Shown here: positions 8,194-51,873 of the stretch, piece by piece
Numbering within the stretch: the stretch's first letter is position 1
Layout: every line of letters begins with the position of its first letter
Assembly (NCBI GenBank): GCA_041660505.1
Contig: JBAZWG010000002.1
Span: forward strand, 868 to 64,867
Source of the DNA: Minisyncoccota bacterium
GTDB lineage: Bacteria; Patescibacteriota; Minisyncoccia; Phycocordibacterales; JACRKE01
Direction of reading: 5' to 3'
Length of the DNA stretch: 64,000 bases
Position numbers and translations under genes: made by a program
Notes under the pieces: generated by a model
Database searches by the model: none
Told to the model about the DNA's origin: nothing
The model's input: the letters and a program-made list of their open reading frames with translations, nothing else

Positions 8194-8201
8194 AGCAGAT
8201 T

Positions 8202-9164
8202 ATGATAGAACGCTTTACTGTAAAGATGCTTAGAGGATCGGCAGAGCAATTGAAATTCAAGTGTATTGTTGAGCCTAAGTTCGGCCATGTCGGTTATATA
8301 GAAAATAATACCGGCGAGAGATTCTTTTTTAAGTTATCAGCTCTGGATATAAATCCACTGGGCGCTTCGAAGATTGCGACTGATAAAGATTATACGCAAT
8401 TCCTGCTGGAGAAATTCGGTTATCCTGTGATATCCACAGAAACATTCTTCTCTGACGAATGGTGCAGAATAAATAATACCCAGAATAATTTAACTGCCGC
8501 ACTGGAATACGCAGAAAAGGTTGGTTATCCGCGCATAGTTAAACCCAACAGCAAGGGCCAGGGTAGGGGAGTGGCCAAAGTATATTCCGACGAAGAGCTC
8601 AAATTGGCACTTATTAATATTTTCGCAATAGATAATATCGCGCTTATACAGCCTTGCGTTCCGGGTACTGATTATCGCGTTGTAGTGTATAAAGATAAAG
8701 TTGTAGCGGCATATTCTCGCACGCCACTTATTATATTCGGCGACGGAATAAAAAGCATACGAGAGCTCTTGCCTGCATATGACATACCACTGCCAACAAT
8801 CGTATCGAGGATAAAGCGCGAGTATAATTTGACATTGGATTCTATCCCAAAAAATGGCGAGAGATTACAGCTTCTGGATAATGCCAACCTCTCGACCGGA
8901 GGCCAAGCCAGAGACATGACAGATACTATATGCGATAACGCGAAAGAGTTAGCCATAAAAGCGGTAAAAGATCTGGGGCTCAATCTGGCGGGCGTTGATA
9001 TTTTAACCACAGACGATATCGAGAAGAGCATGGTAGAATATGTAATTGTAGAGGTTAATTCGATGCCGGGCATGGAACATTATTCGGCACTAGGTCCGGA
9101 CCAGCTTGAGCGTACTCGCAGATTATACATAGATATAGTGCAAGATTATTTTAGCCATGATTAG
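8202..9164 (+). CDS. ATP-grasp ligase, D-Ala-D-Ala ligase (Ddl)-like with a short divergent N-terminal domain
   Basis: ASKIATDKDYTQFLLEKFGYPV resembles the Ddl ASALSMDKLRSKLL..GLPV segment. YPRIVKPNSKGQGRGV matches the ATP-grasp P-loop region. C-terminal YVIVEVNSMPGMEHYS resembles Ddl EANTSPGMTSHS. It lacks the Ddl N-terminal HGxxGEDG motif. It occupies the slot between mraY and ftsW usually held by murD. Confidence 0.65.
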   Translation: MIERFTVKMLRGSAEQLKFKCIVEPKFGHVGYIENNTGERFFFKLSALDINPLGASKIATDKDYTQFLLEKFGYPVISTETFFSDEWCRINNTQNNLTAALEYAEKVGYPRIVKPNSKGQGRGVAKVYSDEELKLALINIFAIDNIALIQPCVPGTDYRVVVYKDKVVAAYSRTPLIIFGDGIKSIRELLPAYDIPLPTIVSRIKREYNLTLDSIPKNGERLQLLDNANLSTGGQARDMTDTICDNAKELAIKAVKDLGLNLAGVDILTTDDIEKSMVEYVIVEVNSMPGMEHYSALGPDQLERTRRLYIDIVQDYFSHD

Positions 9165-9166
9165 TA

Positions 9167-10264
9167 ATGAATAGAACAAAAAGAGTAGATGTGATACTAG
9201 CCACACTTACCGTGCTATTGGTCACGATCGGCTTTCTGGTATTCGCCTCCGCTTCTATGGGTTTGCTATCCAGGGGTGGAGCCAATTATTCCTTGGTATT
9301 AATGAAACAGGGTGCTATTGCGCTCGCCGGTATTGTTTTGCTATTTTTCCTCGCTACGAAGATCCATTATAAATTCTTTCAGCATTATGCCACGGGGATT
9401 TTTTTCTTAACCCTTATACTCACTATTCTAGTTTTCATTCCGCACATAGGTTTCAGCACCAAGGGAGGTACGCGCTGGATAGATCTCGGTTTCGGCACTA
9501 TTCAGCCATCGGAATTTCTAAAGCTCGGCACGGTACTCTTTTTGGCTGCTTATTATGCGAAGATAAAGACTCACGTGACTTCGTTCACAAAAGGCTTTCT
9601 CCCGTTTCTTATTACTGTCGCAGTTGTCGGCGCGATAATACTTAAACAGCCGGACACGGGGACATTCCTGGTGGTCGTTTGCGGTGCTACTGCCGTTTTT
9701 CTGGCTGCAGGCGGGCGCTGGTTGCATTTAGCTATTTTCGCATTGGCGGGAATAATTCTTGCTGCCGGTCTTGCTACCGTATACCCGCATGTGCAGGACC
9801 GTATTAATACTTTTTTGAATTCAAAACAGGGGACTCTGGATACTTCGTACCATTTGCGTCAATCGCTCATAGCCATAGGTTCGGGGCAGATAATTGGCCG
9901 AGGCTTCGGCCAGAGCGTGCAAAAATTCAAATATCTCCCGGAACCGATAGGTGATTCCATATTTTCTGTATTTTCCGAGGACTTCGGCTTTATCGGCTCA
10001 TCTGTTCTAATTCTATTGTTCATGTTCTATTCCTTGCGGGGGCTTCGTATCTCCGACAGGGTGCCCGATCAGTTCGGTAGACTTCTTGGTATAGGAATTG
10101 TTATACTGATAGTGTCACAGTCGTATATAAACATAACGGCTTTGACCGGTATTATCCCGCTTACCGGAGTCCCGCTTGTCTTTATAAGTCAGGGCGGTAC
10201 GGCTCTGTTAATGGCGTTCATTGAAGCGGGGATATTATTGCAAATTTCTAGACATACTCAATAG
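9167..10264 (+). CDS. ftsW: SEDS-family peptidoglycan glycosyltransferase FtsW
   Basis: QPSEFLKLGTVLFLAAYY and an ~10-TM profile; positioned between the Ddl-like gene and murG. Confidence 0.85.
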   Translation: MNRTKRVDVILATLTVLLVTIGFLVFASASMGLLSRGGANYSLVLMKQGAIALAGIVLLFFLATKIHYKFFQHYATGIFFLTLILTILVFIPHIGFSTKGGTRWIDLGFGTIQPSEFLKLGTVLFLAAYYAKIKTHVTSFTKGFLPFLITVAVVGAIILKQPDTGTFLVVVCGATAVFLAAGGRWLHLAIFALAGIILAAGLATVYPHVQDRINTFLNSKQGTLDTSYHLRQSLIAIGSGQIIGRGFGQSVQKFKYLPEPIGDSIFSVFSEDFGFIGSSVLILLFMFYSLRGLRISDRVPDQFGRLLGIGIVILIVSQSYINITALTGIIPLTGVPLVFISQGGTALLMAFIEAGILLQISRHTQ

Positions 10265-10266
10265 TT

Positions 10267-11400
10267 ATGAAAATATTATTTACCGGAGGGGGAACGGGTG
10301 GACACTTTTATCCTATTATCGCTGTGGCGCAGGAACTTGCACGGCTATCGGAGGAAGAAAAATTCGTAGCACCTCAACTCTACTTCATGTCGAACGGCCC
10401 GTACAACAAACGAGCGTTATTCGACAACAGTATCGCCTACATTTTCGCGCCGGCTGGTAATCAAAGAATATATTTTTCACCAAAGAATATCTGGAATCTA
10501 ATAAAAACATTTTTTGGTATTTTGGGCGCCATCTGGAAAATATATCTCCTGTATCCGGATGTAATCTTCAGCAAGGGCGGGTACAGCAGTATCCCGGCGC
10601 TCGTAGCGGCGCGGGTATTCGGAATCCCGGTTGTTATCCACGAATCAGACAGTGTCCCTGGGCGTGTTAATCTCTGGGCGGGCAAATTCGCCGTCAAGAT
10701 TGCCGTATCGTACCCTGAGGCAGCCAAGTTCTTTCCACCGGACAAGACCGCGGTCACCGGCAACCCAATTCGTAGAGATTTCTTCTCTCCGGCATATTCC
10801 GGAGCGCATGAGTTCTTCGGCTTCGATCCGGCATTGCCGGTGATCTATGTGACGGGTGGCTCAAGCGGGTCTGCAAAAATGAACGACACGCTTGTCGACA
10901 CACTTCCACAGCTAATAGAGCATGCCCAAGTCATCATACAGACAGGCAAAGACTCTTACGAAGATATCTTGAAGAGAGTGACCTATATACTTGAAAAGAC
11001 GGGTAAACAGTCTCGCTGTAGGGTTTATGACTACGTAAATACATCGGCCTTGCGCATGATCGGCGGGAGTGCCGCAATAGTTATCTCACGAGCCGGATCT
11101 ACGATCTTCGAGATTGCCGCATGGGGCATACCGAGCATAATCATCCCGGGCGATGAGAGTGTCTTTCATAACGACCATCAACGCAAGAACGCTTACGCTT
11201 ACGCGCGCACCGGTGCATGTGTTGTCATAGAGGACAAGAATCTGCGTCCGAATATATTATATTCGGAAATTGAACGTATTTTGCAAAGTCAGGAGGTGCA
11301 AAAAAATATGCGTGAGGCGGCCAAAGCATTCGCGGACGATAAGAGCGCGCAACGTATAGCGCGAGAACTCTTAACGATTGCTTTGTCACATGAAATATAA
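10267..11400 (+). CDS. murG: UDP-GlcNAc:lipid I N-acetylglucosaminyltransferase (MurG)
   Basis: N-terminal MKILFTGGGTGGHFYPIIAVAQEL (GGGTGGH) signature; 377 aa. Confidence 0.9.
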   Translation: MKILFTGGGTGGHFYPIIAVAQELARLSEEEKFVAPQLYFMSNGPYNKRALFDNSIAYIFAPAGNQRIYFSPKNIWNLIKTFFGILGAIWKIYLLYPDVIFSKGGYSSIPALVAARVFGIPVVIHESDSVPGRVNLWAGKFAVKIAVSYPEAAKFFPPDKTAVTGNPIRRDFFSPAYSGAHEFFGFDPALPVIYVTGGSSGSAKMNDTLVDTLPQLIEHAQVIIQTGKDSYEDILKRVTYILEKTGKQSRCRVYDYVNTSALRMIGGSAAIVISRAGSTIFEIAAWGIPSIIIPGDESVFHNDHQRKNAYAYARTGACVVIEDKNLRPNILYSEIERILQSQEVQKNMREAAKAFADDKSAQRIARELLTIALSHEI

Positions 11401-19521: not shown

Positions 19522-20139
19522 ATGTCAGAATCAGTACAAAAACTTACCGAGTTATTTAGCAAGTTTCCGGGTATCGGCCCGAGACAAGCTCGGCGCTTTG
19601 TCTATCACCTGCTTGAAGAGACAGAGTCTTCACGAGGTTTTCTCGCTCAAAAAATCCTGTCGCTAAAAAGCGAGATGATGCGGTGTTCAAAATGTAAAAG
19701 ATTCTTTAGCGTCGGTGATGCTCCTCATCAGAATCTTTGCCCGTTATGCGCAGACACGGCTCGCGACAGTTCCCTACTCATGGTCGTAGCCCGCGATGTA
19801 GACCTCGAAAGTGTCGAGAAAACAAAACAATATAGCGGTAACTATTTCGTTCTGGGTGGCCAGCTTAAAATCTTAGACAAAAATCCTGAATCCAGAATCA
19901 GAATCATTGAGCTCGAGGCACTACTGCACAAGTCTCCCGATATAAAAGAAATAATAATAGCAATGAACGCCAATACCGAAGGCGATTATACTGCCGACTA
20001 TGTGCGCCAAAAGCTGACGGAGTCCTTCCCCACCCGCGATCTCAAGATTACCGTCCTAGGCCGCGGTCTTTCGACAGGCACGGAATTAGAATATTCTGAT
20101 TCTGAAACGATTACCTACGCACTTAAAAACCGCTTCTAG
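19522..20139 (+). CDS. recR: recombination protein RecR
   Basis: LTELFSKFPGIGPRQARRFVYHLL (HhH), a C4 zinc finger (CSKC...CPLC), and a Toprim domain; 205 aa. Confidence 0.9.
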   Translation: MSESVQKLTELFSKFPGIGPRQARRFVYHLLEETESSRGFLAQKILSLKSEMMRCSKCKRFFSVGDAPHQNLCPLCADTARDSSLLMVVARDVDLESVEKTKQYSGNYFVLGGQLKILDKNPESRIRIIELEALLHKSPDIKEIIIAMNANTEGDYTADYVRQKLTESFPTRDLKITVLGRGLSTGTELEYSDSETITYALKNRF

Positions 20140-33603: not shown

Positions 33604-34255
33604 CAGCTTGCCCGCCGACGAGGCGGGGCAGATGTAAGGCCAAACTCTCAAGAATAAGTTTAATGGCCGGCGCCGTGTCGTGTATATATTGCTTGCTCTT
33701 TTCGAGCAGTTCGAAGGCTGTTTTGTCTTTTTTCGCCAGTTCCGGGTTCTTTGCATAATATATTTCTAAAGCAGACAATATTGCACCGGCATCGTATTTA
33801 GTCCGCGCGTGCACTTCATCACTCTCATCGCGCACGTCAAAGAATGTCTTTTCTAGATATTTCAACCGTTCGATCGGCGTTTTCCTCAGAAACTTTTCTG
33901 CGTCGAAAACTTCTTCACTTGGAAGCTTAGCTTCCAAGTCTTCTAAAATATGTAATCTTGAGCGGAGGGTTGGTAATAAGTCATCCGGATACGGCGTAAT
34001 GATAACAAACTTAGTTCCGGGCATTGGCTCTTCTAGTGTCTTGAGTAGAGCATTCTGCGCCTCTCGTCCGAAGCCGTACGCGCCGATACTGAATGTCTGT
34101 ACATCCCCGTCTGCCACTGCCAAGCTTGCCCTGCGGTGCAATTCATGTGCGTCGGCGATATCAAATGTTACGTAAACTTCATCAGCAGAGACGGGCTCGC
34201 CTTGTATCAAGAATGCATGGTGAGTTGAAAGTTGAAAGTTGAAAGGGGTTCGCAT
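33599..34255 (-). CDS. holB: DNA polymerase III delta' subunit-like (AAA+ clamp-loader subunit without a P-loop)
   Basis: HHAFLIQGE (degenerate Walker A region, as in delta') and ALLKTLEEPMPGTKFVIITPYPDDLLPTLRSRLHI (sensor-1 / SRC-like motif). 218 aa. Codons 5-11 (FNFQLST) are encoded by an (AGTTGAA)3 heptamer repeat. Confidence 0.65.
   Translation of the reverse strand: MRTPFNFQLSTHHAFLIQGEPVSADEVYVTFDIADAHELHRRASLAVADGDVQTFSIGAYGFGREAQNALLKTLEEPMPGTKFVIITPYPDDLLPTLRSRLHILEDLEAKLPSEEVFDAEKFLRKTPIERLKYLEKTFFDVRDESDEVHARTKYDAGAILSALEIYYAKNPELAKKDKTAFELLEKSKQYIHDTAPAIKLILESLALHLPRLVGGQAV
34222..34244. repeat. (AGTTGAA)3 tandem heptamer repeat immediately downstream of the holB start codon
   Basis: gagttgaaagttgaaagttgaaagg. 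It is related to (AGTTGGG)4 at the fmt 5' end and to AAGTTGAAAG motifs at 33551-33590 and 48301-48360. Confidence 0.7.
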
Positions 34256-35319: not shown

Positions 35320-35381
35320 TACCCTACTATAGCAAACACTTTTTACTGTCCAAAGCTTAGCTTTGATAATTTCGATATGTG

Positions 35382-35390
35382 TGGTATAAT
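35382..35390 (+). promoter_or_regulatory. extended -10 TGgTATAAT, 6 nt upstream of the RAYT ATG (leaderless)
   Basis: gtggtataat-ttaaca-ATG. Confidence 0.45.
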
Positions 35391-35396
35391 TTAACA

Positions 35397-36077
35397 ATGC
35401 GAATTATTGAATTTTGTGCGAATGAATATTACCACGTCTTTAACAGAGGCAATAATAAACAAGTAATCTTTCGCGATGATAGCGACCGTTTCCGATTCCT
35501 GTTCGCACTGCTTTTTTTTCAGGCTCCAATCAGCTATGACCAGATTGGCAGATATATAGTGTTTTTAAAAAGGCACAGGACGGACATTAGCCAGAATGAT
35601 TCATTAAAGGATTTAGCGGAGCACGTACTGGGCAAACGCTCTATAGAATTAATCAATTTTTGTCTTATGCCAAACCATTTCCACCTTGCCGTTAAGCCAA
35701 TGAAGGATAATGCAGTGTCGCTATATTTACATAAAGTATTAACTTCGTATACAAAATATTGGAATAAAAAATATAAGGCGACGGGACACCTGTTCGAAGG
35801 ATCATTCAAAGCTGTCCGTGTTGCTGATAATGACCAGTTTTTATATCTATCGACCTATATACACAGAAACCCCGCTGAATTATCGACGTGGATTGGTCGC
35901 GAGCATGAATATCCGTGGTCGAGTCTGCAAGACTACCTTGGTGTTAATCGTTGGGGAAAACTGCTTGCGACCGAAAATATTTTAGAGCAATTTGACTCGA
36001 TTGAGGAATATCGGGCTTATGTTAACGATAGCACAGCAAAAACCGGCGATGACGACATCGAGTTTGTCCAAAGCTAA
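35397..36077 (+). CDS. REP-associated tyrosine transposase (RAYT), HUH/Y1 family
   Basis: YHVFNRGNN...IF.DD.DR.RFL.LL, HUH motif LMPNHFHL, GHLFEGSFK, catalytic-Tyr region YIHRNPAELS, and the C-terminal YPWSS motif. Start at ATG 35397 (ORF-track GTG 35379 rejected). Confidence 0.7.
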   Translation: MRIIEFCANEYYHVFNRGNNKQVIFRDDSDRFRFLFALLFFQAPISYDQIGRYIVFLKRHRTDISQNDSLKDLAEHVLGKRSIELINFCLMPNHFHLAVKPMKDNAVSLYLHKVLTSYTKYWNKKYKATGHLFEGSFKAVRVADNDQFLYLSTYIHRNPAELSTWIGREHEYPWSSLQDYLGVNRWGKLLATENILEQFDSIEEYRAYVNDSTAKTGDDDIEFVQS

Positions 36078-38344: not shown

Positions 38345-41300
38345 TTACGGCGTCGTACTCGTCGCATTTGGGTCTATTACGTTAACTATTCTTATCTGTT
38401 CGATGGCATTATTACCTGAATTATCTACTGCGTTATATTTAACCTCATGTGTACCGGCTAATGTTGTGTCTATCTGATCGCCTGTCGTGACTATGCCGAG
38501 ATTATGATCTACGTTGTCTGTAACTGTTGCGCCCATGTCGCTGTAACTCGAGCCCATGTTTATTGTAGATGGGTTGAGGCCGAGCATTGTGATGACCGGA
38601 GCCTCTGTGTCTGCTGGCGGGGTCGAAGTACCAGCAGGCGCCCCGGCTGGGGCAGTTCCTGCCACGCACTCCCCTGCTACGCTGGCGACGAGGCCACTTG
38701 ACACCTTCAAACAATACGGATTGCCTGTCGTGTCGTCATATAATGTGACACCTATCGGGTTTACTGACGAGCCAACCTTCATACTCTTTAACACGTTTAA
38801 GTCTTGTACCACCAATCTGCCGTTCTCGTCCAAGCTCCAGTTGCCCGAGGCAGAAGCCAGACTCTTTATATTGACTATTGCTTGCCCTTGCAGGTCGAGT
38901 ACGCGCGCTGTTGCGAGCTTCATATAACCCGTACTTTGATCTACTACCCAGTCTGAACTCACGGCGCCGTCTGCAATACCCGAAGAAATATTCTGATAAC
39001 CAAGATTGACGAAGACAGTAATACTGCCTGTCTGTGAATAAGAGCCGTCGGGTAGAGTGCCGCTCCAAGGCTCAAGGGCGATACCAACAGTCTGGCCGGA
39101 GGTCGTCGCCTTCATACCGATACCTGCCGCCGATGAAAGCGTGATGTAGTCACCAACCGCAATATCCCCTCCTTCAAGGTTAACTTTAGTCGGCACGCGA
39201 CCAGAGAGAGCCACGGGACGCGAAGTACTCGCCGTAAACTCCGAACTTGCACCACCGAGCAGAACACCGGGGTCAGTAGATATGATTCCTATTACCGGTA
39301 TGATAGTAGAACTTGCCTTTCTCACAACAAGAGTCGAGGTAGAAGTATCCAACGATACTAAGTCACCCGCCGAGATAGTCTCGTCCGTTATTTTGTAACT
39401 CTCTGCCAGGTCCACGGTTTGCGTCGAAGCTCCTCGAGAATAAATCTGTCCTGCCGGTACAGAACTACATGCTACCGTAGCGGAACTCGTTGACACGCAA
39501 AGACCGGAACCAGTCCCTGTTCCGTAAACTTCGAGCTTCGCCCCTGGCGTCGTCGTCCCGATACCGACGTTGCCCCCCTGTGCCTGAAAAGCGATATTCT
39601 GATTATATCCCGTGTTCTGCTGTATTCCTTGAAATTCAAAGACATTTGAGGCATTGGACATTGTAACCTGTAGTTGCTTTTGTGTTGTCCCCTGCTGATT
39701 TCCAAACTCCATAAGTTTAACGCGGTCTGTTGCAGTCTCGCTTACTGGAGAGATAACTCCATTCACGCTTAGCTTGTAGTTAGGTGTGGTTGTCCCGATG
39801 CCTACGTTGCCCGCGTTTGTTATTGACAACTTCTCCGAGCCTTGTACCGCTAACCCCATGGTTGCTCCTGTACCTCTTGCGTCTAAGAACGCTTTACCAG
39901 CATTACTCGTGTATATAGACAGACCAGTAGCGGCAGCAGCGGAGAAGGTGTTGTTGCCAATTACCAATCCATAAGGGCTATCATCATCTCCTGTTATTTT
40001 TAGCAGTTGTGTTGCGGCTGTCCCACCATCAAGAATTTCAAGTTTTGCCGAAGGACTCGTCGTCCCGATGCCGACGTTGCCATTCTGTTGTATTCTCATC
40101 TTCTCAGCATTAGCTGGTGAGAATGAGATATAGTTTCCAGTACCAGCAGAGTAGTTGGTTTGGAAATCAAGTGAATTATCACCAGCGTCATTGAAGGTTA
40201 TTTTGGCATACTGTCCCGCTACTCCTGCGCCCAAGTTATCCAAAACGATTTGCGGATTGCCGCGAGTCCCCTCGTGAATTGAAAGTTTAGCCCACGGAGT
40301 TGTGGTTGCAATTCCGACATTACCATTCGTATCTATCATCACTTGGTCAGTATTTGAATAGGAGTCTGACCCTTTTCCAAAAAACATTGTCCCATTACTA
40401 CTCTGTATGTAGCGATGATGCAAACCAGATACGGCATCGGTATCAGAAAGATAAAACATTGGGGCGATATTGGCGATATTTAACAAATATGCTGGCGTCG
40501 TCGTCCCGATACCGACGTTGCCGTTTCGGAGCACTGTGAACGATGTCGTTGTTGCCGTTAATGTTGAGCTGGCCACCGTGAATATCGGCTGGGTGCCGTC
40601 AACATTGCTGTCGCTTGTGTTGGCGGAGACAGAGAGTTTGGCCCATGGGGTTGTGGTGCCGATACCGACTAGCCCGCCGGAGGTGATACGCATGGCTTCG
40701 GTCATTGCGGTGCTATTGTTGGTACTGAAAGCTAAGTAGCCAAGTTGATTGTTTGTTGTAGAGTTTTCTTTAAACCCAACGATGCTGGCGAAATTTCTGA
40801 TCGATGAGGGGATTAATGGTACATCGTCTTTATAACCACCGAAGGCGATAGAGCCACCGGTATCTACAGCTTGGGAATTATTCGATCGTATCAATAATTG
40901 TCCCGTAGCGGTACGCGTCGGGACGGTGCTCGAGCCATAGATATCAAGCAGAGCTAGCGGCGTCGTCGTGCCGATGCCGACATAGCCACTGCGGAGGATT
41001 GTAAATAATGAATTGGTGGCGCTGGCGGTAGAGCTCGCAACGACAAAGAGCGGGGTGGCCATGTTGGCAGAGGAGTCGGTCGTATTGCCTTGTATCGAGA
41101 GTTTAGCAAATGGTGAGGTAGTGCCGATGCCGACAAAACCATTAGTGGTGAATTGGCCTGTGCTTGTGGTGGTGGCGTTGCCGTTCACGGTCAAAACAGA
41201 TGTTGATGTTGTGCCTGTTGTAGTGAGGTTGGCGTTGGTGCCAGAGGAACCAATGAGAACGCCACCGGCAAAGTTGGCGGCGACGCCGTTCGGGTTGGTA

Positions 41301-44300
41301 ATTGGATAGCTGACAATAACAATACCGGAACCGCCACCGCCACCCGCGCCTCCTTCTGTAGCACCGCCACCTCCACCGCCCGAGTTAGTGGTTCCGGCAG
41401 TACCAGCACCAGAAGTACCTCCTGCGCCACCGCCACCAAGCCCTCCAGAACCTCCGCTTTGAAGATCGCTGGAGCCACCACCACCGCCACCATAGTAGAC
41501 GGTGGTTACACCATCGCTAATAGCGGTAGTTGTGCCTATTCCGCCGACGCCGGCGGCTGCATCTGACCCATTACTACCAGTAGCACCCGCTCCGCCACCA
41601 CCACCGCCACCATTATTCTGTGCCGCTCCGCCACCATTATAGCCTTGCCCCGAAGTACCGTTACCGCCTGATTGACTGCCGGCACTGGCAGCACCGCCAC
41701 CAGAACCACCATCGCTACCAGCCCAAGTGAACGCTTGAGAACCTCCCTTACCTCCTCCTGTGGCCACTACAGTACCAAACTGCGAATCGCCTCCGTTAGT
41801 ATTAGTGCTACCGGTAGCACCCGCTCCGCCAGCACCGACTACTACTGTTATGCTTTGAGAAGGCGTCACCGCGTATGAATATCCGTTACTAGGTCCGCCG
41901 CCAACAACTCCTCCTCCACCTCCTCCACCGCCATCAACCCACGAAGTAACGCCGTTCTTGCCTCCACCGCCACCACCTGCCACCACGAGCACCTTAACGC
42001 TGGTTACACCACTACTTGGAACGGTAAAAGTGACAGACCCGGTATTGGTAAATGTATGAACCCTGTAGGTCTGTCCACCTGACGTATAGGTAGTGACGGT
42101 TCCTTGATTGTCTGTAGCCGATGGCGTTGAGCCTACTGCATTAACATCGAGTGAATATGCCGGCGTCACAACGCCGATGCCGACGAGGCCTGCGGACGTG
42201 ATAGTTGTTGTTGCAGTTCCTCCAAACCACGACTGATCGTTGACGGAAAGTTGAGTTGTCGAAGCATTAGTAAACGTGGCTTGGCCGGTGACTGCGAGCG
42301 TGCCGGATAATGTCGTTGCGCCGGTGACGGAGAATGTGCCACCAACGGATGTGTCGCCGGAGACAACGAGAGCTGATGTGCTTGCTGTGCCCGTCACCGC
42401 CAGATTCGTCGTCGTGGCGTTGGTGCCTGTGGCATTCACGAAGGTGAAGTTTTGGAGGGTGGTGCTACCTGTGAGCAAGATGTTGGTGGCGGTGAGGAGA
42501 CCGTTATTAAGAAGCGTAAGCCTCTCGTTGTTCGCGAAGTCGGCGAAGGCGAAGAGTCTGCCGGTGTCATTGGTGCCGAAGCCGTTGACGGCGAACTTGG
42601 CGGATGGCGAGGTTGTGCCCACGCCGACACGGTCGGAATATGAACTGCCGGTGCCGTCGGCAAGAGCGTAGACCGTGAGGGTGGAGGTAGCACCAATGCC
42701 AGCCGAGAAGCCGAGCTCGGTACCGGAGGCGAGCGTTGTCGAGGCGAGAGGCATATTGATCCAATCAATGAGACCGGCGTCGGCCTCGAAGGATTGCGAG
42801 CCGGTGATGAGCTGGGCAATGGTGGTTGAGCCGGTGTTGTCTATAGAGAAGAGCGTGGTGGAGGCACTGTCTGTGACTTCGAAAGCTCGGCCTGATGACG
42901 TGGCTGTGCCCCAGATGGTAACCTTGGCATATGGCGAAGTGGTGCCGATGCCGACGTTGCCTGTCGATGAAATGTAGATGGAAGAGGTGGCCTGTGCTAC
43001 TCCCGCATCGTTACCGACGAGCAAGAAGCCTTTCGTAAGATTGAGAGTGGTGAGAAGTGAGGATGTGGCAGTTGAATACAATCCGCCGGTAGAAGTAAGT
43101 GATGCAAAACCGGATGTGTAAGAAGAGAATGTCGCGTTGCCGGAGACTATGAGCGCGGATGTGCTTGCGATGCCCGTCACCGCCAGATTTGTCGTTGTCG
43201 CATTCGTGCCCGTGGCGTTTGCGAAAGTAAAGTTCTGGAGAGTAGTTGACCCCAGTGTAAAGATATCGCCGAGATAATTCACAGAGAATTTGGTGGAGGA
43301 TGCGACTTTCATATCTAGCAACATACCGGAGAAACCGGCTAGGGCATCGGTGCCGATAACTGTGCCCGTGGTGGAGAGTTTTTCGACAGAAAGTAGGGCG
43401 TATGGTGATGAGGTACCAATGCCCAACAAGCCTTCGGCGGTCACTGCGCCGAGAACCGTACCAGAACCATTTTGCCATTCTTGCAGATCTGCTGTTTGGC
43501 TTGTGATGCCTTGTACGATCAAACCTTTTTCACCGACCTCAGCAGTGCTGACGTGAAGTTTAGCGAGCGGTGTGGCATGCGAGGTGGCGGTATTGCCGAG
43601 AACAAGGGAGCCTATGAAGATCCAATCTGATTGGCTGGCGCTTATATTGAGTTTGTAATATCTATAGTTCTGTGCTGTACCTAGGGCATATGTTCTGATT
43701 TCACCAGAGCTCCAAGCGGGAACATTTGTTTGTGTATTCAAAACAGTCCATGCCGAATTGTCGTTTGAACCCTCGAATGTCCAAGTTTTTGGCCCATAGG
43801 TGTAATAAGTGGTATACGAGTCTGCCTGGATTTTATATTGATTTACAGTTGTATAGGTTCCCAAATCAATTTTCAACCAACCTGAAGTACCATTAACACA
43901 CCACGCCGTCGAAGAATCTGAATCAAAAGATTGCCACGCAGAACAGTTGACCTCTGTAGACGCACTTGCCACATACGGCGAAGGGGCGCTGTCGCTCGTC
44001 AAGAATGTCGGGATCTGAACATTTGCCGGCGTAGAACCAATAGCTAAGCGAGAGTTTATCGAGTCAAAATACATGATGCTGTTATTCTGACTGACTGCTC
44101 CATTAGCACCAATATACGGGACAGAGCCAGAAGTAAGCGCGGTAAGCGAGAGCGTACCGCCAACCGTTGAATTGTCGCTGACGATGAGCGCAGAAGTTGA
44201 TGCTGTACCCGTGACTGCAAGGTTGGTGGTTGTCGCATTGGTACCCGTAGCATTGGCGAAAGTGAAGTTCTGCAATGTAGTTGATCCCAACGTAAAGATG

Positions 44301-47300
44301 TCGCCAAGATAATTTACGGAGAACTTGGTGGATGAGGCGACTTTGAGATCAAGTAACGTACCGGTAAATGTTGATAATGAATCAGCGCCAATGACGGTGC
44401 CTGAAGAAGATAGATGTTCGATAGAGAGACGAGCATATGGGGTTGAAGTGCCCATTCCGATCAGGCCGTTATAGAATGATGTGAAGATAGGGGCGGAACT
44501 TGTGGCGTTTTGTAATGAAAATATGGAGATACTTTGTGAACGAGAGGTCGTAGCGTTGAGCGAGAAGAAGCCGTTCACATTCAGACTGTTCCAAAGTCTG
44601 GTATTCCCCGCCACTTCGACATTGCCGGATGAGAAAATGTCGCCGGAGTAAATTGATGATGCGCCGGAGTCGGCCTCGGCAAGAGTACTGCTTGAGTAAG
44701 CGAAGCCGATCATGTCAAGAGTACCAGCCAGCATTGTGCGCGCCAATGATGAATATTCAACAGATGAAAGTGCGGTCGTACCGCCATCATTTGTTCCGGC
44801 GATGGCATAAACATAACCATTTACAACAAGAGATGTGTGATATTCCCTAGCACCGCTAAATGGCGTAGCGGTGAGCGTCGTCCACGCGCCGAGAGTGCCA
44901 TTTGCATATATCTTGGCATATTCGATGGAGGAAAGGTTGCCGCCGCCGATACCGCCCATCGCGTACAAATATCCGTTTGCCACCACGGCGGATAACGCTC
45001 CTCTGGCTGTATTAAGAGGAGTTGCGGTGAGCGTCGTCCACGCGGCCAGCGTGCCGTCGCTGTTTATCTTCGCTGACTCTACCGACGATATGGACGTTCC
45101 ACTTGTTATTCCACCAATTGTATAAATATATCCTCCAACAACAACTGACGCGTGAATATTTCTGGCTGCGTTAAGCGGTGTCGCCGTTAGGGTCGTCCAT
45201 GTACCAAGCGTACCGTCACTATTTATCTTCGCATATTCGACGGTAGCGGTATCGCTTATGCCGGTACGACCGCCCATAACATATACATAACCGTTAGAAA
45301 CTACGGAGGCGTGCGCGTATCTGGTGATATTTAATGATGCCGTCGTTTTCCACGCACCGAGCGTGCCGTCGCTGTTTATTTTTGCGTATTCGACAGTATT
45401 AACCTGTACTCCACCTGTACCATTACCACCGATGGCGTAGACATATCCGTTGGCGGCGATAGAACTGTGCTGATATCTTGTGATGGTAAGCGATGACGTT
45501 GTTGTCCACGCACCAAGTGTGCCATTACTGTTTATCTTGGCATATTCGACAGATGAAAGCCTGGTACCGTTGTATCCACCGATGGCGTAGACATATCCGT
45601 TGGCGGCGACTGATGTCTGTTGGTAACGAGTCGTGCCTAGAGATGATGACGTTGTCCACGCGCCAAGTGTGCCATCATTGCCGGAGTTGAGCGCAATTGT
45701 TTTCTGCGCAACCGATACCGGATACACAGGGGATGAAGTCCCGATGCCGACGTTGCCGCTATTCTGCTGGACAACGAATTGCGATGTGCCAACTGTTAAG
45801 CCGCCCGTTGAGAATGTGGAAGTGGCGGTGGTGGAAGTAATTGCGAGCACGCTCGTTGTACCGATTGATGCGGTAAAATTCTGGAGCGTGGTACTGCCCA
45901 GCGTAAAGATATCACCGAGATAATTCACCGAGAACTTGGTGGAGGATGCGACTTTGAGATCGAGCAATAGGCCGGAGAAGCCGGTGAGCGCATCTCCCGC
46001 GATAAGCGTGCCGGCAGAAATCCCGTCGACGGAGAGCTTGGCGTAGGGCGTTGAGGTACCGATACCGACGTTACCGGCAGTACCTTCTATCACCATGCTG
46101 GTTTGCGGTGTTGCAAACATGTCTCTCGGAGTAGTTAGGAACCGAATTGCTGTTGGTACGGTGTCACCATTGTCTTCGGCTTGTTTCGCGGCGACAATAT
46201 CCAAGACTCGCGCATAACGACCCGCAGACGGATAATCTATTACATAGTTATATGAAAATGTGGCTCTGTCGTCCGCCAAATAACTCGGCAAACTCGTTCC
46301 TCCATATCCTCTGAATATTTTTATATCTTTACCATAAACGTCTAAACCTGCAGTGGGACTTTCGGTCCCTATTCCTACGTTGCCGCCGCGTGTTACAACA
46401 AAGTTAGTTGTTGTAGCAATATCGGTTGAGGATGATATCAAGAAGAGCGGTGCGATTAGGTCTAGATCGGAAGTGTTGCCACTCACAGAAAGTTTCGCGT
46501 AAGGCGAAGTGGTACCGATGCCGACGAGGCCAGTATCGGTGATGGTCATCCGCTCGGCACTGGCGGTTACGAATCGAAGGAAGTCGTCATCACCGGCGGT
46601 GATGTAGGTGGTCTGGGCGGCGTTGATGACACCGCCTAGGCCTTGCCAGACACTGTTGTCGCCGAAGCCTTCGAACTGGTGCGTCGTTGTGTTGTAACGG
46701 ATCTGGCCGGCAAGCGCCATGCCCGGTCTCTGGGCTGTTGTGCCAATTGGGAGATGGACTGCGTCGGTGGCGTAGATGTCGAGACTCGTGGCCGGTGTTG
46801 AAGTGCCAATGCCGATGCGACCGCTTGATGACTGGACGATGAATTGGCCGGAACCGATATTAAGGCCGCCTGTCGCGAACGTCGATGTAGCTGTTGTCGA
46901 TGTCGCAGTGAATGACGAGGCGACCACTTCGCCCATAACAGAGAGCGGTGCATATGGCGAGCTGGTGCCGATGCCAACATTGGAATTGCGGTAGATGTTG
47001 GAGCCGTTCACCGTCCAATTGGAGAATACTGCCGCAACACCATTCTGGAGTAATGAACCAGTGATGTTGATATCGCCCGCCACATCGAGCGCATGTTCGG
47101 GAGAAGTAGTGCCAATGCCGACAAGGCCGGTGAAGATGGCGCCAGTGCCGGTGGTGGTGCCCGTAAGTGTCCCGCCACCAAGCGGCAGATACCCGGAGAT
47201 TGTGCCCCCGCCGGTGAAGGTGCCGGAGATGGTGGCATTGGTGATGGTAACGCCGTTCAATGAATCGATGCGATTAGAGAGACTGATGGCGCGATAGTTG

Positions 47301-47833
47301 CCGGCATCGACAGCGGCGCCATGCGAAGCGTTGGCGTAGATGAGGGCTGTGAGTTTGTTGTCGAGCTGGTTCAGCTTGGTAGCCAAGTCACTTGATGTAA
47401 CACCGGAACTTGTTTGTTGGTAAATGATTGTTGGTTTGGTTGTTGTAACGGTTCTCGCGGGCGCACTGCCGATGACAGAAATCTTGCCCGCCAAACTATT
47501 GACTTGATCACGTAATGCTTGTATATCGCTGTTTACAGTTGTAGTTGACAGAGTATCAGATATCGTGGCAATGTCGGTGACTTTTTGACTGATAACAGGG
47601 GTGGTAACTGTGACTGTCGGAGAGGGCTTTTGGACCTGCGGAGAGAAGAAGGAGATGAGCGACGTTTGAACGCTATTGAATATGTCCCCTATCGTACTGC
47701 TGATGCTTGCCATATATTGGCTAGGTAGAGCCGTATATTCATTGACGAGGGAGGCGTGAGCTAGCGAAAAATTTGCAATAAAAAAGACGGTTAAAACCGC
47801 AAAGTAAACTACAAATTTTCGCACCGAATGCAT
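38345..47833 (-). CDS. giant secreted multidomain surface protein (3162 aa). It has tail-fibre-like GIGT repeats, a Kelch-type beta-propeller, a discoidin (F5/8 type C) domain, a Gly-rich domain, a tail-fibre-like C-terminal module and an Ig-like (DUF5011-type) domain.
   Basis: Signal peptide [27 protein letters not shown]. About 20 copies of G(N/L)VGIGT(T/S)(S/T)PxAKLxV. About 6 YVYAIGG Kelch blades (aa ~715-1060, nt ~44650-45690). Discoidin-like [31 protein letters not shown]...YRYYKL (aa ~1290-1415). Gly-rich [14 protein letters not shown]... (aa ~1955-2175, nt ~41320-41960). [19 protein letters not shown] module (aa ~2808-2990). C-terminal Ig-like [31 protein letters not shown] (nt ~38380-38610). 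No C-terminal TM or sortase signal. Confidence 0.85.
   Translation of the reverse strand: [3162 protein letters not shown]
42300..46000. repeat. three to four near-identical ~250-300 bp direct repeats inside the giant gene
   Basis: Copies around 45860-46000, 44160-44350, 43140-43330, and a partial copy at 42300-42480. They encode (G/M)LLD(L/M)[46 protein letters not shown]. They are potential recombination or size-variation substrates. Confidence 0.7.
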
Positions 47834-47986: not shown

Positions 47987-49669
47987 ATGCAGGTCATCAC
48001 ACTTATCCCCATCGTCCGTGGTATCGGCAAAGACGAGCTTACCTACTTCTCTACCCTGCCTGTCAAGGTCGGCGACATTGCCACTGTCACCATCAACTCG
48101 CGCGAAGTGCGCGGGATAGTCACGGACGTACTCGACGCGAGAACGGCAAAGAATTCTGTGAAGCGCGGAGACTTCGCGCTAAAGAAGGTTCTGAAGATCG
48201 AGCCGGGATTTATTGCACCATCTGTCATTTCTGTAGCAAAAGAAACTTCTGATTATTTCGCTTGTTCAGTGAGTCAGGTTCTCGGCTCGATGTACCCCAA
48301 AAACGTACTAAACGAAGTTGAAAGTAAAAAGTTGCCGTGCCTGCCGGCAGGCAGGAAAGTTGAAAGGAATCACCCCTCTCCTTCGGGGAGGGGCCGGGGT
48401 GGGGTTGCAATCGAAGGAACCCGGCAAGATCGTTTTGTTTGGATTCAAAAAAACTTAATCAAGAGGAATATGAAAGTCTTATATATTTCACCATCGAATC
48501 ATGAACTAGCAAAAGCTAAAAAAGTTTTCAATGATACTGAAATTATTTGCGTATCGCCGGAATATGGCTTTGTATGGCTACCTTATGTCGATACGATAAT
48601 TTTAGATAACGAAAGTGGCGCTGGCTATCATGATAATTCACGGGCACAAATAGATTTTAAAAAAGTGTACGAATTTCATGCGCTGGAAAATAAACAGCAA
48701 ATAATTTTCGCTGATAACGTGCTTGATCTCAAATATTTCGCAAATCCAAAAAGTGGCCAACATCGGGTGTTGACCACTTTTCCAAAAGTTATGGTGGTAA
48801 AAAAGGAAAAAACTGCTCTGCATAATTCTTGGCTCGTGAGTAAAGAAGCAGTGGGATTGACGGAAAAAATACTTGCAAAAAATTCTAGAATGTTCTTCTT
48901 CGCTCCACGTAAAAGTATCGCGAGTATCACCGTATGTGGTGATTGCGGCGAAACCGTGCAGTGTGAGACTTGCAAACGGCCACTTATGCTCGCACGCAAG
49001 AATGGTAAACGAATATTCATCTGCCAAAAATGCTCTCAAATCACGCAAGTAGATATATCATGTGCAAGCTGTAATAGCTGGAAGTTGAGACCCCTGGGTG
49101 TGACAGTTGACTCTGTCGCTGATGAGCTGGAGCGATTATTTCCCAAGGCGACCGTCTTGCGAGTGTCGGGCGACATCACAAAGACCAAGACCCAACTTGC
49201 AAAAATCATCAAACAATTTTATGCCACATCCGGCGCGCTGCTCGTCGGCACCGAGCTTGCGCTCCCCTATCTCGAACAGCTAATTTCTTATTCTGTAATC
49301 TCCAGTATCGATTCGTTTTTATCAGGCAGAAGTTTGTCAGGTACGGACAAAGCCGCGCGAATTATCTTTGAGGTTGCAACCCTTGCCCATGAAAAAGTTT
49401 TAGTAGAAACAAGCGACCCACACCAGCAATTTTTTCAAGATATTTCTGATGGCGGAGGTTTAACCTCCGCTATGCTAAAAACATATCGCGAACATGAACT
49501 TGCAGAAAGAAAAAAGTTTAACTATCCGCCATACAGTATTATCATAAAAATAAATTCAGAAATATTTTTTATAAATAAAGAGAAGTGGCCGGACGCAGAA
49601 CTCGTCGCGAGAATTCGCGCGTTGCCAAAGGGCTCAACCTACACCATAGACGCAAACAGTGTCGTGTAG
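47987..49669 (+). CDS. primosomal protein N' (PriA)-like, with degenerate helicase ATPase motifs
   Basis: Start set at ATG 47987 (TACAAT 6 nt upstream; ORF-track TTG 47948 rejected). N-terminal 3'-DNA-binding domain. PriA Cys-rich zinc-binding region CGDCGETVQCETCKRPL...CQKCSQ...CASCNS is collinear with the E. coli PriA CHDCG..CPRCD..CHHCD..CPSCG region. Walker A GxTGSGKT is absent (YISPSNHELAKAK instead), and DEEH is replaced by DNES (IILDNESGAGY). It carries an in-frame REP-like element at 48301-48360. Confidence 0.6.
   Translation: MQVITLIPIVRGIGKDELTYFSTLPVKVGDIATVTINSREVRGIVTDVLDARTAKNSVKRGDFALKKVLKIEPGFIAPSVISVAKETSDYFACSVSQVLGSMYPKNVLNEVESKKLPCLPAGRKVERNHPSPSGRGRGGVAIEGTRQDRFVWIQKNLIKRNMKVLYISPSNHELAKAKKVFNDTEIICVSPEYGFVWLPYVDTIILDNESGAGYHDNSRAQIDFKKVYEFHALENKQQIIFADNVLDLKYFANPKSGQHRVLTTFPKVMVVKKEKTALHNSWLVSKEAVGLTEKILAKNSRMFFFAPRKSIASITVCGDCGETVQCETCKRPLMLARKNGKRIFICQKCSQITQVDISCASCNSWKLRPLGVTVDSVADELERLFPKATVLRVSGDITKTKTQLAKIIKQFYATSGALLVGTELALPYLEQLISYSVISSIDSFLSGRSLSGTDKAARIIFEVATLAHEKVLVETSDPHQQFFQDISDGGGLTSAMLKTYREHELAERKKFNYPPYSIIIKINSEIFFINKEKWPDAELVARIRALPKGSTYTIDANSVV
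48301..48360 (+). repeat. REP/MITE-like element in frame inside the priA-like gene. It is AAGTTGAAAG-flanked, with a 14-bp perfect palindrome gcctgccggcaggc.
   Basis: gaagttgaaagtaaaaagttgccgtgcctgccggcaggcaggaaagttgaaagg encodes ...NEVESKKLPCLPAGRKVERN.... A second GC hairpin (cccctctcc-ttcg-gggagggg-like) follows at 48372-48395. It is near-identical to the minus-strand copy at 51549-51583. Confidence 0.7.
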
Positions 49670-49678
49670 TATAGTAGG

Positions 49679-50254
49679 GTGATGAAAGTGATGTTGGATG
49701 GCGCACCGGTACTGCGCGAAAAAGCAAGAGAAGTACCTGTACCGGATATCAAAAAAGGCTTATATAAAGCCATGGTTGCAGACATGCAGGCTACGCTCCT
49801 GAAGTGCCACGATGGGGTAGCCTTGGCCGCCCCGCAGGTCGGCAAGAGCATCAGATTATTCGTAATATCGCCAAAAGTATTTCAAGCCGAACAGGAGTTA
49901 GGAGATGGGAGATCGGAGTTAGGGAAATCCAAAACCGTATCCCCCAAACTCCAAACTCCTAACTCCCAACTCCCACGCCTCGTCTACTTCAACCCTAAAA
50001 TAAAAAAAGTTTCTGCCAGTAAAAAAGATCTCGATGAAGGCTGCCTCTCGGTGAACGGCCTCTATGGCAAAGTCCCGCGCAGTACAAAGGCGCTGATTGA
50101 AGCCTACGACGAATACGGTATGAAGTTTACGCGCGGAGCATCGGGCCTGCTCGCGCAAATCTTCCAACATGAAGTCGATCATCTTGATGGCATTCTCTAT
50201 ATCGACAAAGCATCGGAACTCAAGCAATTAGAAAGTAGGAAAACAGATGCTTAA
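49679..50254 (+). CDS. def: peptide deformylase, carrying an ~28-aa repeat-encoded insertion
   Basis: GVALAAPQVG, EGCLSV and QHEVDHLDG motifs are intact. The segment ELGDGRSELGKSKTVSPKLQTPNSQLPR lies between the conserved VIS and LVYFNP blocks, where E. coli Def has only ~8 residues. Confidence 0.9.
   Translation: MMKVMLDGAPVLREKAREVPVPDIKKGLYKAMVADMQATLLKCHDGVALAAPQVGKSIRLFVISPKVFQAEQELGDGRSELGKSKTVSPKLQTPNSQLPRLVYFNPKIKKVSASKKDLDEGCLSVNGLYGKVPRSTKALIEAYDEYGMKFTRGASGLLAQIFQHEVDHLDGILYIDKASELKQLESRKTDA
49911..49987. repeat. imperfect hairpin element built from GGAGTTN / AACTCCN heptamers, in frame inside def
   Basis: Left arm gggagatcggagttaggg, a ~20-nt loop, right arm ccaaactccaaactcctaactcccaactccc. 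Confidence 0.65.
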
Positions 50255-51164
50255 TTCGAATGGAAGTTGGGAGTTGGGAGTTGGGAGTTGGGGAAAATAC
50301 AACTTCGTATTTTTTGGTACTTCTAACTTCGCCGTCATAGTTTTAGACGAGCTCAAGGCCGGCGGCTATCTACCGAGTTTAATTATTACAGTGCCTGATT
50401 CCCCGCAGGGCAGAAAGCAGATAATTACTCCTTCACCGGTTAAACTCTGGGCAATTGAACATAATATCCCTATCGAACAACCCGAGAAACTCCTAACTCC
50501 CAACTCCCAACTCCTAACTCCTAACCGTGACTTCGGCATTGTCGTTGATTACGGCAAAATCATTCCGCAGAAAATTATAGATATCCCGAAACACGGACTT
50601 CTGAACGTACACGTGTCTCTTTTGCCAAAATTTCGCGGGGCTTCGCCAATGCAAACAGCAATACTTGAAGGCGAAGCAGAGACCGGCGTAACTATAATGC
50701 AAGTGGTAAAGGGGCTCGATGAAGGCGATATAATTGCACAAGAAAAATTTGATTTGGCTAACTGGCACCCGTATTTTCTTGAACTTGCAGACAAAACCGC
50801 ACATGCCGGCGGTAAATTGCTTGTAAAAATTCTGCCGGATTATCTCGCCGGCAAAATTACACCAATTAAACAAGATAATTCTAAGGCAACTTTTACGCGA
50901 AAATTCGAGGTGCAAGACGGTTTTATAAAACCTGAAATCGTGCTGGGCACAGAGACTGGAGAATTGGCGCAAAAAGCAGAAAGAAAAGTCCGTGCCCTGA
51001 ATCCAGAACCCGGCACCTGGACCGAGTTAAAAATAAGAAATACGGCTCTACGTATAAAGATTCTGAAGGCGCACTTAGAAGTAGATAAATTTATACCCGA
51101 CACTGTAATACCCGCCGGCAAGAAAGAGATGTCGTGGCAAGACTTCAAAAACGGGAATCTGTAA
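50247..51164 (+). CDS. fmt: methionyl-tRNA formyltransferase
   Basis: Start ATG 50247 overlaps the def stop (ATGCTTAA). VFFGTSNFAV, HVSLLPKFRGASPMQ, and a C-terminal domain. The N-terminal 13-aa extension SNGSWELGVGSWG is encoded by (AGTTGGG)4. LLTPNSQLLTPN is encoded by (AACTCCN)5. Confidence 0.9.
   Translation: MLNSNGSWELGVGSWGKYNFVFFGTSNFAVIVLDELKAGGYLPSLIITVPDSPQGRKQIITPSPVKLWAIEHNIPIEQPEKLLTPNSQLLTPNRDFGIVVDYGKIIPQKIIDIPKHGLLNVHVSLLPKFRGASPMQTAILEGEAETGVTIMQVVKGLDEGDIIAQEKFDLANWHPYFLELADKTAHAGGKLLVKILPDYLAGKITPIKQDNSKATFTRKFEVQDGFIKPEIVLGTETGELAQKAERKVRALNPEPGTWTELKIRNTALRIKILKAHLEVDKFIPDTVIPAGKKEMSWQDFKNGNL
50254..50286. repeat. (AGTTGGG)4 tandem heptamer repeat at the fmt 5' coding end
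   Basis: gaagttgggagttgggagttgggagttgggg. Confidence 0.75.
50491..50529. repeat. (AACTCCN)5 tandem heptamer repeat inside fmt (reverse complement of the 50254 repeat family)
   Basis: aactcctaactcccaactcccaactcctaactcctaacc. Confidence 0.75.
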
Positions 51165-51548: not shown

Positions 51549-51600
51549 GTTATTTAATAAACTTTCCTGCCTGCCGACAGGCATGGCAACTTTATACTTT
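51549..51600 (-). repeat. REP-like element copy in the hpf leader / promoter region. It has a TATAAAGT -10-like box, the gcctgtcggcaggc palindrome, and (AAAAGTT)2.
   Basis: Minus strand reads gttaaaagttaaaagtataaagttgccatgcctgtcggcaggcaggaaagttta. About 90% identical to 48311-48352. Confidence 0.65.
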
Positions 51601-51606
51601 TAACTT

Positions 51607-51873
51607 TTAACTATTCTGAACACCTCCAGAGCCGCGCATACGTATGCTCGCCGTATCGAAGATACTGAAGAGCTTCGAGGGTGATGTGTGGCCGGAGATA
51701 AGGCGCACAAGCTTCTCCTCTACGCCTAATGTTCTTGCCAAGAGCTCTGTAACTTTCTTATTAGCGAGATTGCGCTCGGCCTTCTCGCGCACCCACATCT
51801 CATACTTGTCAGAAGACACCTTTGTTACACGATCAGCCTTGGCGCCCGGCGTAACCTTAACGTGGATATACAT
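51607..51873 (-). CDS. DUF167 / YggU-family protein
   Basis: 88 aa; MYIHVKVTPGAKADRVTKV...LGV...GHTSPSKL matches the YggU (UPF0235) pattern. Confidence 0.55.
   Translation of the reverse strand: MYIHVKVTPGAKADRVTKVSSDKYEMWVREKAERNLANKKVTELLARTLGVEEKLVRLISGHTSPSKLFSIFDTASIRMRGSGGVQNS

Follow-up and report, generated by a model that had tools for sequence, protein, structure and literature searches.

Heptanucleotide repeats are the most abundant class of long simple sequence repeats (SSRs) in many bacteria (summarised in PMC4679880). G-rich heptamers, such as GGGAATC in Xanthomonas and GGGGA(C/T)T in Nostoc, form arrays of about four units that are mainly intergenic, occur occasionally as inverted pairs and are capable of folding into G-quadruplexes (G4s), which arrays of four or more units form in vitro (Rehm et al. 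2015, PMC4692102). Direct repeats of TAACTGA are found in Beggiatoaceae, cyanobacteria and Bacteroidetes, where they lie beside start codons, with rare cases inside open reading frames (ORFs) (MacGregor 2015, PMC4679880), and for these and other heptamer repeats the tolerated sites and orientations are set by coding potential (PMC4679880). Rickettsia palindromic elements (RPEs) are about 150 bp long, have a family consensus and a conserved encoded peptide, and occur as dozens of dispersed copies (summarised in PMC10969869). Here we describe a 64-kb stretch of DNA (hereafter the window; contig JBAZWG010000002.1) from a metagenome-assembled genome of Candidatus Paceibacterota (Parcubacteria), a member of the candidate phyla radiation (CPR), in which the genes for peptide deformylase (def) and methionyl-tRNA formyltransferase (fmt) contain, in frame, four arms of a single heptamer family, GGGAGTT / AACTCCY. 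Our array searches in the source genome cover this window, and we found no description of such arrays in CPR bacteria in the literature. An initial annotation of the window had likened the arrays to RPEs. We consider them to be, probably, heptanucleotide SSRs of the short tandemly repeated repetitive (STRR) type, composed of the G3N4 unit GGGAGTT and its complement, and not transposable palindromic elements.

Tandem repeats were called with Tandem Repeats Finder (TRF), and we refer to GGGAGTT / AACTCCY as the strict family and to (AACTYYY)n as the looser family. The strict family comprises arms A and B, which form hairpin (i) in def, array C, also called (ii), at the start of fmt, and array D, or (iii), further downstream in the same gene (Table 1). 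All are head-to-tail runs of three or more 7-nt units, with TRF copy numbers of 4.3, 4.6 and 5.4 and 91-96% matches for arms B, C and D, respectively. The 14-mer GGGAGTTGGGAGTT, allowing up to two mismatches, matches the window 11 times against 0.31 expected, a number reached in none of 100 shuffles, and all 11 matches are confined to 49907-50522. The existence of tandem heptamers of one family in def-fmt, as claimed by the initial annotation, is therefore far above chance, whereas its coordinates were off by 3-18 bases: the hairpin begins at about 49893 rather than 49911, and array C at 50261 rather than 50254. The four arms span 620 bp and follow one another in the order G-rich, C-rich, G-rich, C-rich, flanking the fmt start. 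Arm A is 83% complementary to arm B and, over 31 nt, 90% complementary to array D, of which it repeats the order of unit variants in reverse complement, and an exact 21-mer, AACTCCTAACTCCCAACTCCC, is common to arm B and array D. The arms are 31-38 bp long and differ in unit number; beyond the unit, they share no flanks, termini, element-length consensus or target-site duplication. No further copy of the strict family was found in the other 63 kb of the window. The looser family gave 13 matches against 0.03 expected and added three more sites (34218-34247, 48313-48333 and 51588-51615), and six of the seven heptamer arrays in the window lie inside ORFs. Related arrays occur elsewhere in the window, as members of the looser family, and at the same gene sites in relatives.

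Table 1. Heptamer arrays, their host genes and associated small elements; positions count from the first nucleotide of the window
Feature	Position	Strand	Description
Degenerate AATCCAG x3.6	19882-19905	+	In frame within recR
(TTCAACT)x3.3	34218-34247	-	Directly after the ATG of a holB-like gene (DNA_pol3_delta2); encodes FNFQLST
PriA linker following the 3'BD domain, composite insert	48313-48410	+	AGTTGAA-type heptamers, 48313-48333; palindrome TGCCTGCCGGCAGGCA, 48338-48353; GC-rich hairpin CCCCTCTCCTTCGGGGAGGGG plus GGGGTGGGG, 48371-48405
def (peptide deformylase, PF01327)	49679-50254	+	Likely start ATG 49691; three catalytic motifs intact
Arm A	49893-49923	+	Degenerate, G-rich: AGGAGTT AGGAGAT GGGAGAT CGGAGTT AGG; lies in the variable loop of Def and forms the left side of hairpin (i)
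Arm B	49943-49975	+	C-rich AACTCCN x4.3; right side of hairpin (i); Def-loop peptide ...PKLQTPNSQLP...
fmt (methionyl-tRNA formyltransferase, PF00551/PF02911)	50247-51164	+	8-nt overlap between its ATG and the def stop
Array C (ii)	50261-50293	+	(GGGAGTT)x4.6, 96% matches; starts at +14 from the start codon of fmt
Array D (iii)	50488-50525	+	(AACTCCY)x5.4; follows 'QPEKL' in the linker of Fmt; encodes LLTPNSQLLTPN
yggU-hpf spacer site	51568-51615	+	Intergenic; second palindrome copy (TGCCTGCCGACAGGCA), then (AACTTTT)x3.6 array

The unit itself is compatible with translation. As a cyclic word, GGGAGTT is free of stop trinucleotides on both strands, and so is AACTCCC; only A/T variant units can create TAG or TAA, and all of these are out of frame. 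An array is thus translatable in every frame, a total length divisible by three being sufficient, and it reads in any frame as the cyclic seven-residue peptide GSWELGV or NSQLPTP. The initial annotation had stressed that all copies keep the frame and avoid stops, which is true but is no special feature, as it follows from the unit and ordinary purifying selection. The encoded peptides that it quoted, those of the Def loop, array C and array D, match our reading.

The def-fmt pair is preceded by a priA-like gene and followed by hpf and yggU. As previously noted, the fmt ATG overlaps the def stop; the 8-nt overlap has the sequence ATGCTTAA and is kept in four relatives (L122, L126, L214 and L215). 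The window Fmt is identical to its homolog P0001, and the Fmt of another relative, P0003, carries the peptide KFEIRNLKFEI and is encoded behind a 129-nt def-fmt spacer. In our alignments, the Def catalytic motifs G..AAPQ, EGCLS and HExxH are invariant, as are the Fmt catalytic residues N120, H122 and D158, which agrees with the intact motifs reported at first. Array C encodes SWELGVGSWG as part of an N-terminal Fmt extension that is missing in the nearest relatives P0002, P0003 and P0005; the extension had been recognised before, although it is 16 and not 13 residues long. The position of array D corresponds to a length-variable Fmt linker after 'QPxSLK'. The Def segment of about 28 residues had been taken for an extra loop by comparison with E. 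coli Def, which indeed has about 8 residues at this position, but every Paceibacterota Def, including those that are 70-76% identical, has a loop of 15-40 residues here that is unalignable and of unrelated sequence. The heptamers thus overwrite an already hypervariable Def loop. The repeat-encoded segments are lineage-specific in sequence and lie outside the catalytic cores.

Mapping the segments onto AlphaFold2 (AF2) models placed them in unstructured parts of low predicted local distance difference test (pLDDT) score. The Fmt model has a mean pLDDT of 92.5, with residues 8-15 below 50 and an average of 75 for the block 81-90, and the loop of the Def model has a pLDDT of about 47-51, with residues 75-89 below 50, and is without secondary structure. 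According to models and alignments, the encoded peptides are predicted to be floppy surface segments that leave the catalytic cores untouched. Judged from the intact ORFs and the AF2 models, the arrays are translated in frame inside housekeeping genes at structurally tolerated positions.

We then compared the window with eight priA-def-fmt loci of relatives (nine loci in all, 140 kb) and with a second set of more distant Patescibacteria-type fmt loci (845 kb). Period 7 was the commonest tandem-repeat class in the nine loci, with 32 of the 74 TRF rows compared with 8 for the next class, and the more distant loci gave a count of 19 for period 7 as opposed to 7, 4 and 2 for periods 5, 6 and 8. 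Peptides with a 7-residue period were present in 6 of 120 Fmt homologs, and periods of 2-6 residues in none. The same sites are occupied by different units in different lineages. Arrays in the Fmt linker (+202 to +260) consist of AACTCCY in the window, CCAGTTC/CCAATTC in L128, CCTACTA in L129, CTACTKC in L132, CCTACMA in L149 and a degenerate CTACGAG in L126, while those at the Fmt N-terminus (+6 to +14) consist of GGGAGTT in the window, CCATCTA in L132 and AAAGTCG in L216. Def-loop arrays were found in the window, L122 and L216, and PriA-linker arrays in the window, L122 (a heptamer hairpin) and L214; hairpins in the def-fmt spacer end at the fmt ATG (L128) or within 8 nt of it (L129). Unit families are genome-specific and recur at several nearby sites, for example AGTCGAA/ATTCGAA in L216 and CCTACTK in L132, and in L216, L132, L122 and L128 the unit peculiar to the genome is found at 2-4 sites. 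The window likewise carries its unit at several loci and in both orientations, with four strict arms and three AACTYYY sites.

Intergenic pairs of inverted heptamer arrays also recur among the relatives (L132 3019-3095 and 3662-3786; L216 2968-3054; L122 6227-6490; L173 6766-6863). These pairs would fold into hairpins composed of tandem 7-mers and may serve as terminator-like structures.

In their make-up, the arrays resemble the G-rich heptamers of Xanthomonas and Nostoc, being head-to-tail G3-4N3-4 units, about four in number, G4-capable, present in both orientations and genome-specific, with occasional inverted pairs able to form stem-loops (PMC4692102). In contrast to those repeats, which are over-represented in intergenic and under-represented in coding sequence, the four arms described here are translated, in a CPR host and with the unit GGGAGTT. 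With the STRR and TAACTGA repeats they have in common that heptamer direct repeats occur at many loci, often beside start codons and rarely in ORFs (PMC4679880). TAACTGA, however, contains stops in all forward frames and is almost entirely intergenic, whereas GGGAGTT is stop-free and can sit inside genes, and the arrays here are few and locally clustered. The predominantly intergenic location seen in Xanthomonas, Nostoc and Beggiatoa is thus not found in the window. CPR genomes are densely coding, and the ORF location sets these arrays apart from the described repeats in place, not in kind. We take the Nostoc repeat GGGGA(C/T)T to be the one known as STRR1.

The unit GGGAGTT is not special. 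An exact (GGGAGTT)3 scan of genome contigs listed at least 120 loci (L001-L120), among them loci from cyanobacteria, Acidobacteriota, Planctomycetota, Bacteroidota and others, and none of those listed is from Patescibacteria. Here too, (AACTCCC)n is found in frame as NSQLPTP/GSWELGV in bona fide conserved proteins, namely in a Nostoc pyruvate:ferredoxin oxidoreductase (PFOR; L022 2536-2588), a GH57 enzyme, the A-domain of a nonribosomal peptide synthetase, a Treponema Lon (L105 5634-5664) and a Bacteroidales TilS (L111 5900-5931). The array lies between Pfam domain matches in PFOR and Lon and within the PP-loop domain match in TilS. Long "open frames" containing the array in the high-GC contigs L006, L019, L025 and L087 were spurious and were discarded. 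Viral contigs hold six loci with (GGGAGTT)3, as against 2 and 11 for two control G-rich heptamers; with the controls about equally frequent, a transfer of the unit across phyla is unsupported. A preference for exactly four units was rejected as well, since run lengths in L001-L120 just decay, from 71 for three units to 34 for four and 7 for five.

The SSR reading draws on the anatomy of the arms, the permissive places in which they lie, the reuse of these sites by arrays of different units and the absence of element-like features. We propose that replication slippage would create and homogenise the arrays in this Paceibacterota lineage, and that template switching or gene conversion could carry copies, in either orientation, to nearby sites. 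They persist where the product tolerates them, in the disordered Fmt N-terminus, the length-variable Fmt linker and the hypervariable Def loop, and further in the PriA inter-domain linker, the N-termini of other genes and intergenic spacers. The arrays are translated in frame because these segments are permissive and the unit is stop-free, and the complementarity among the four arms would be mainly a by-product of both unit orientations lying close together. Several points weigh against this reading. A purely neutral model does not predict that all strict arms should be confined to 620 bp, with none in the other 63 kb, or that G-rich and C-rich arms should alternate around the fmt start. Copy-number variants were absent among the near-identical contigs that we compared as consensus assemblies (99.9-100% identity; L121, which equals the window, L129/130/131, L122-125, L126/127 and L132/133), and ongoing slippage is thus an inference. 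The enrichment of arrays in priA-def-fmt (16 of 32 arrays in 20% of the sequence, p = 1.3e-4) is inflated because three loci had been chosen for low-complexity Fmt inserts. Finally, the mechanism by which such arrays spread has been described as unknown (PMC4679880).

An origin of the arms from in-frame insertions of a miniature mobile palindromic element, similar to RPEs, to MITEs (miniature transposable elements with inverted repeats) or to the hairpin-forming doublets of repetitive extragenic palindromic (REP) sequences known as REPINs, perhaps mobilised by a Y1 transposase related to IS200 or to the REP-associated tyrosine transposases (RAYTs), is in our view quite unlikely. Hairpin (i) is an inverted-arm doublet, similar ones occur in priA of L122, the spacers of L128 and L129, and in L132, L173 and L216, and inverted doublets that form hairpins are a likeness to the REP/REPIN-RAYT system (PMC3116915). 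A Y1_Tnp gene (PF01797, IS200/RAYT-like) is present in the window at 35379-36077 (+) beside mreB/holB, and a relative, L126, has a homolog at 7853-8518, between fmt and hpf and flanked by GTAGAATCGGATTCTAC palindromes. Like RPEs, the arrays are repeat-derived DNA translated in frame in housekeeping proteins at fold-compatible positions, and in this clade priA and fmt also contain other small hairpin elements in frame. The resemblance to RPEs did not hold up, however, as the arms are locally clustered, are built from a varying number of 7-nt units and have no common non-repeat sequence, element-level consensus, conserved termini or target-site duplication; neither a defined element of 100-150 bp with conserved ends nor many dispersed copies were found in the 64 kb. 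Arrays C and D are moreover single arms 200 nt apart with conserved coding sequence between them, and it is the sites, not the units, that different genomes share. A link between the heptamers and the Y1 transposase was rejected: none of the arrays lies next to the Y1 gene, and the hairpin downstream of that gene, GTCCAAAGCTAAGCTTTGGAC, is unrelated to them. REPINs are near-identical, specific palindromes that usually also flank the RAYT gene (PMC3116915), whereas the doublets here consist of tandem units, vary in length and lie away from the Y1 gene; within the 64 kb, no palindrome common to the heptamer arrays and the flanks of Y1 was found.

It is also conceivable, but doubtful, that the arms act as a cis-acting mRNA structure that gates fmt translation by enforcing its coupling to def, or that sets mRNA stability, with A:D and B:C pairing in a nested manner or A:B together with C:D, and with the fmt ribosome-binding site and ATG beside a long helix. 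Hairpin (i) folds at -37.2 kcal/mol (z = -4.5), the 676-nt region at -214.9 kcal/mol compared with -173 for shuffled sequences (z = -6.2), in a structure whose A:D and B:C helices are nested about the start of fmt, and the C:D duplex at -59.2 kcal/mol, as against about -30 when the arrays are shuffled. An analogous partner is present in L132 at -61 to -22 from the fmt ATG (-45.4 versus -31), the spacer hairpins of L128 and L129 reach or nearly reach the fmt ATG, and a role in regulating translation has been proposed for heptamers next to start codons in Beggiatoaceae and Nostoc (PMC4679880; bioRxiv 10.1101/2022.06.06.494920). There is nevertheless no conserved topology among the relatives: the Def-loop and Fmt N-terminal arrays of L216 are direct repeats that are unable to pair, the linker arrays of L128, L129 and L126 have no partner above background, and the start of fmt is free of arrays in L122, L126, L214 and L215. 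Arrays of this kind are found in priA, holB, recR and spacers, the arms all lie in translated ORFs where ribosomes would melt them, and the units differ between lineages, which precludes a covariation test. A comparison with Rfam yielded only sub-threshold look-alikes of miRNA hairpins on hairpin (i). It is tempting to speculate that this Paceibacterota clade has repeatedly drawn on heptamer arrays to build long-range helices in the mRNA around the start of fmt, although we regard this as unlikely; the A:D/B:C arms of the window, the X:Z arms of L132 and the spacer hairpins of L128 and L129 may be examples. Array C on its own could be imagined as a G-quadruplex, in the mRNA or the non-template DNA strand, that modulates fmt translation or transcription, since its sense strand (GGG-AGTT-GGG-AGTT-GGG-AGTT-GGGG) has four G3 tracts with 4-nt loops, the isolated segment is predicted by ViennaRNA to fold as a quadruplex at -10.4 instead of -2.1 kcal/mol, and G-rich heptamers of at least four units form quadruplexes in vitro in other bacteria (PMC4692102). 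Such a role is very unlikely. When arm B or D is folded along with the segment, the predicted quadruplex is lost from the minimum free energy structure; G tracts are missing from the arrays that L132 (CCATCTA) and L216 (AAAGTCG) carry at this site; and array C is the only one with four G3 tracts, the G-rich strand of arms A, B and D having three at most. Still more remote, to the point of being hardly credible, is that 7-nt slippage in array C makes fmt a phase-variable contingency gene. The architecture is the classical one, with a unit length not divisible by three and a place at the ORF's 5' end, but fmt is a housekeeping gene and the array has only 4-5 units. Changes of +/-1 and -2 units in silico retain an in-frame ATG (50258) or TTG start for the body of Fmt, so that the gene would stay on after slippage, and no length variants occur in L121, an independent contig of 100% identity, or in near-identical contigs of relatives; together, these results make phase variation unlikely.

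Besides the heptamers, the window and its relatives contain other small repeats. A 16-nt palindrome, TGCCTGCCGRCAGGCA, is present twice (0.05 expected), in frame in the PriA inter-domain linker (48338-48353) and in the yggU-hpf spacer (51568-51583). AAAGTT-type heptamers flank both copies, which have the stretch AAAGTTGCCrTGCCTGyCGGCAGGCAGGAAAGTT in common, and the Logan contig L121 begins at 48337, one base ahead of the palindrome. The PriA linker also holds a GC-rich hairpin, CCCCTCTCC..GGGGAGGGG, followed by GGGGTGGGG (48371-48405), which is read in frame (peptide …HPSPSGRGRGGV…). Similar GC-rich elements are in frame in the Fmt C-terminal domain of L128 (5039-5079) and L129 (4423-4450; P0005 …PLPRGGVGWG…), and a similar hairpin adjoins a (GGGAGTT)16 array in L115/L076. 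The GC-rich hairpins look like a second family of in-frame small elements. In L132, we observed a hairpin GGATCCCCG..CGGGGATGAC and a 32-nt repeat with an internal hairpin, AACCTGGATCCCsg…CGGGGATGACAC, at 9357-9388 and 10745-10776, one copy upstream of def and the other in frame inside fmt (…NLDPRCLGDD…). The palindrome, the GC-rich hairpins and GGATCCCCG..CGGGGATGAC, which are unrelated to the heptamers, behave more like RPEs than the heptamers do. Three copies of the palindrome GTAGAATCGGATTCTAC are present in L126, one directly behind fmt, one closely preceding the Y1 gene and one closely following it, a REP/RAYT-like arrangement in a CPR genome. Immediately upstream of priA, a single ORF of 3162 residues occupies 38345-47833 (-), and several short repeats of the CCGCCA/CCTCCTCCA type lie at about 41300-42000, where the local GC content of about 0.53 is above that of the rest of the window.

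A streamlined, densely coding CPR genome thus carries a heptanucleotide repeat class known from cyanobacteria and Xanthomonas, and, intergenic space being scarce, its arrays are translated inside the housekeeping enzymes Def, Fmt, PriA, HolB and RecR. Different lineages make use of the same small set of permissive loops and N-termini. The arrays provide a practical marker of structurally dispensable segments in these proteins as well as a natural data set on the spread and homogenisation of long-unit SSRs. Should the pairing around the fmt start be functional, it would represent a new way of regulating the def-fmt pair, and the def-fmt junction, if helices were indeed built there repeatedly, would be a convergently evolved translational coupling or stability switch made from repeats. 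In that event, in-frame heptamer arrays would constitute a general, locally copying class of repeats that remodels essential proteins in streamlined CPR genomes. For annotation, apparent "insertions" and low-complexity loops in CPR proteins call for caution, as they can be repeat DNA and not functional domains.

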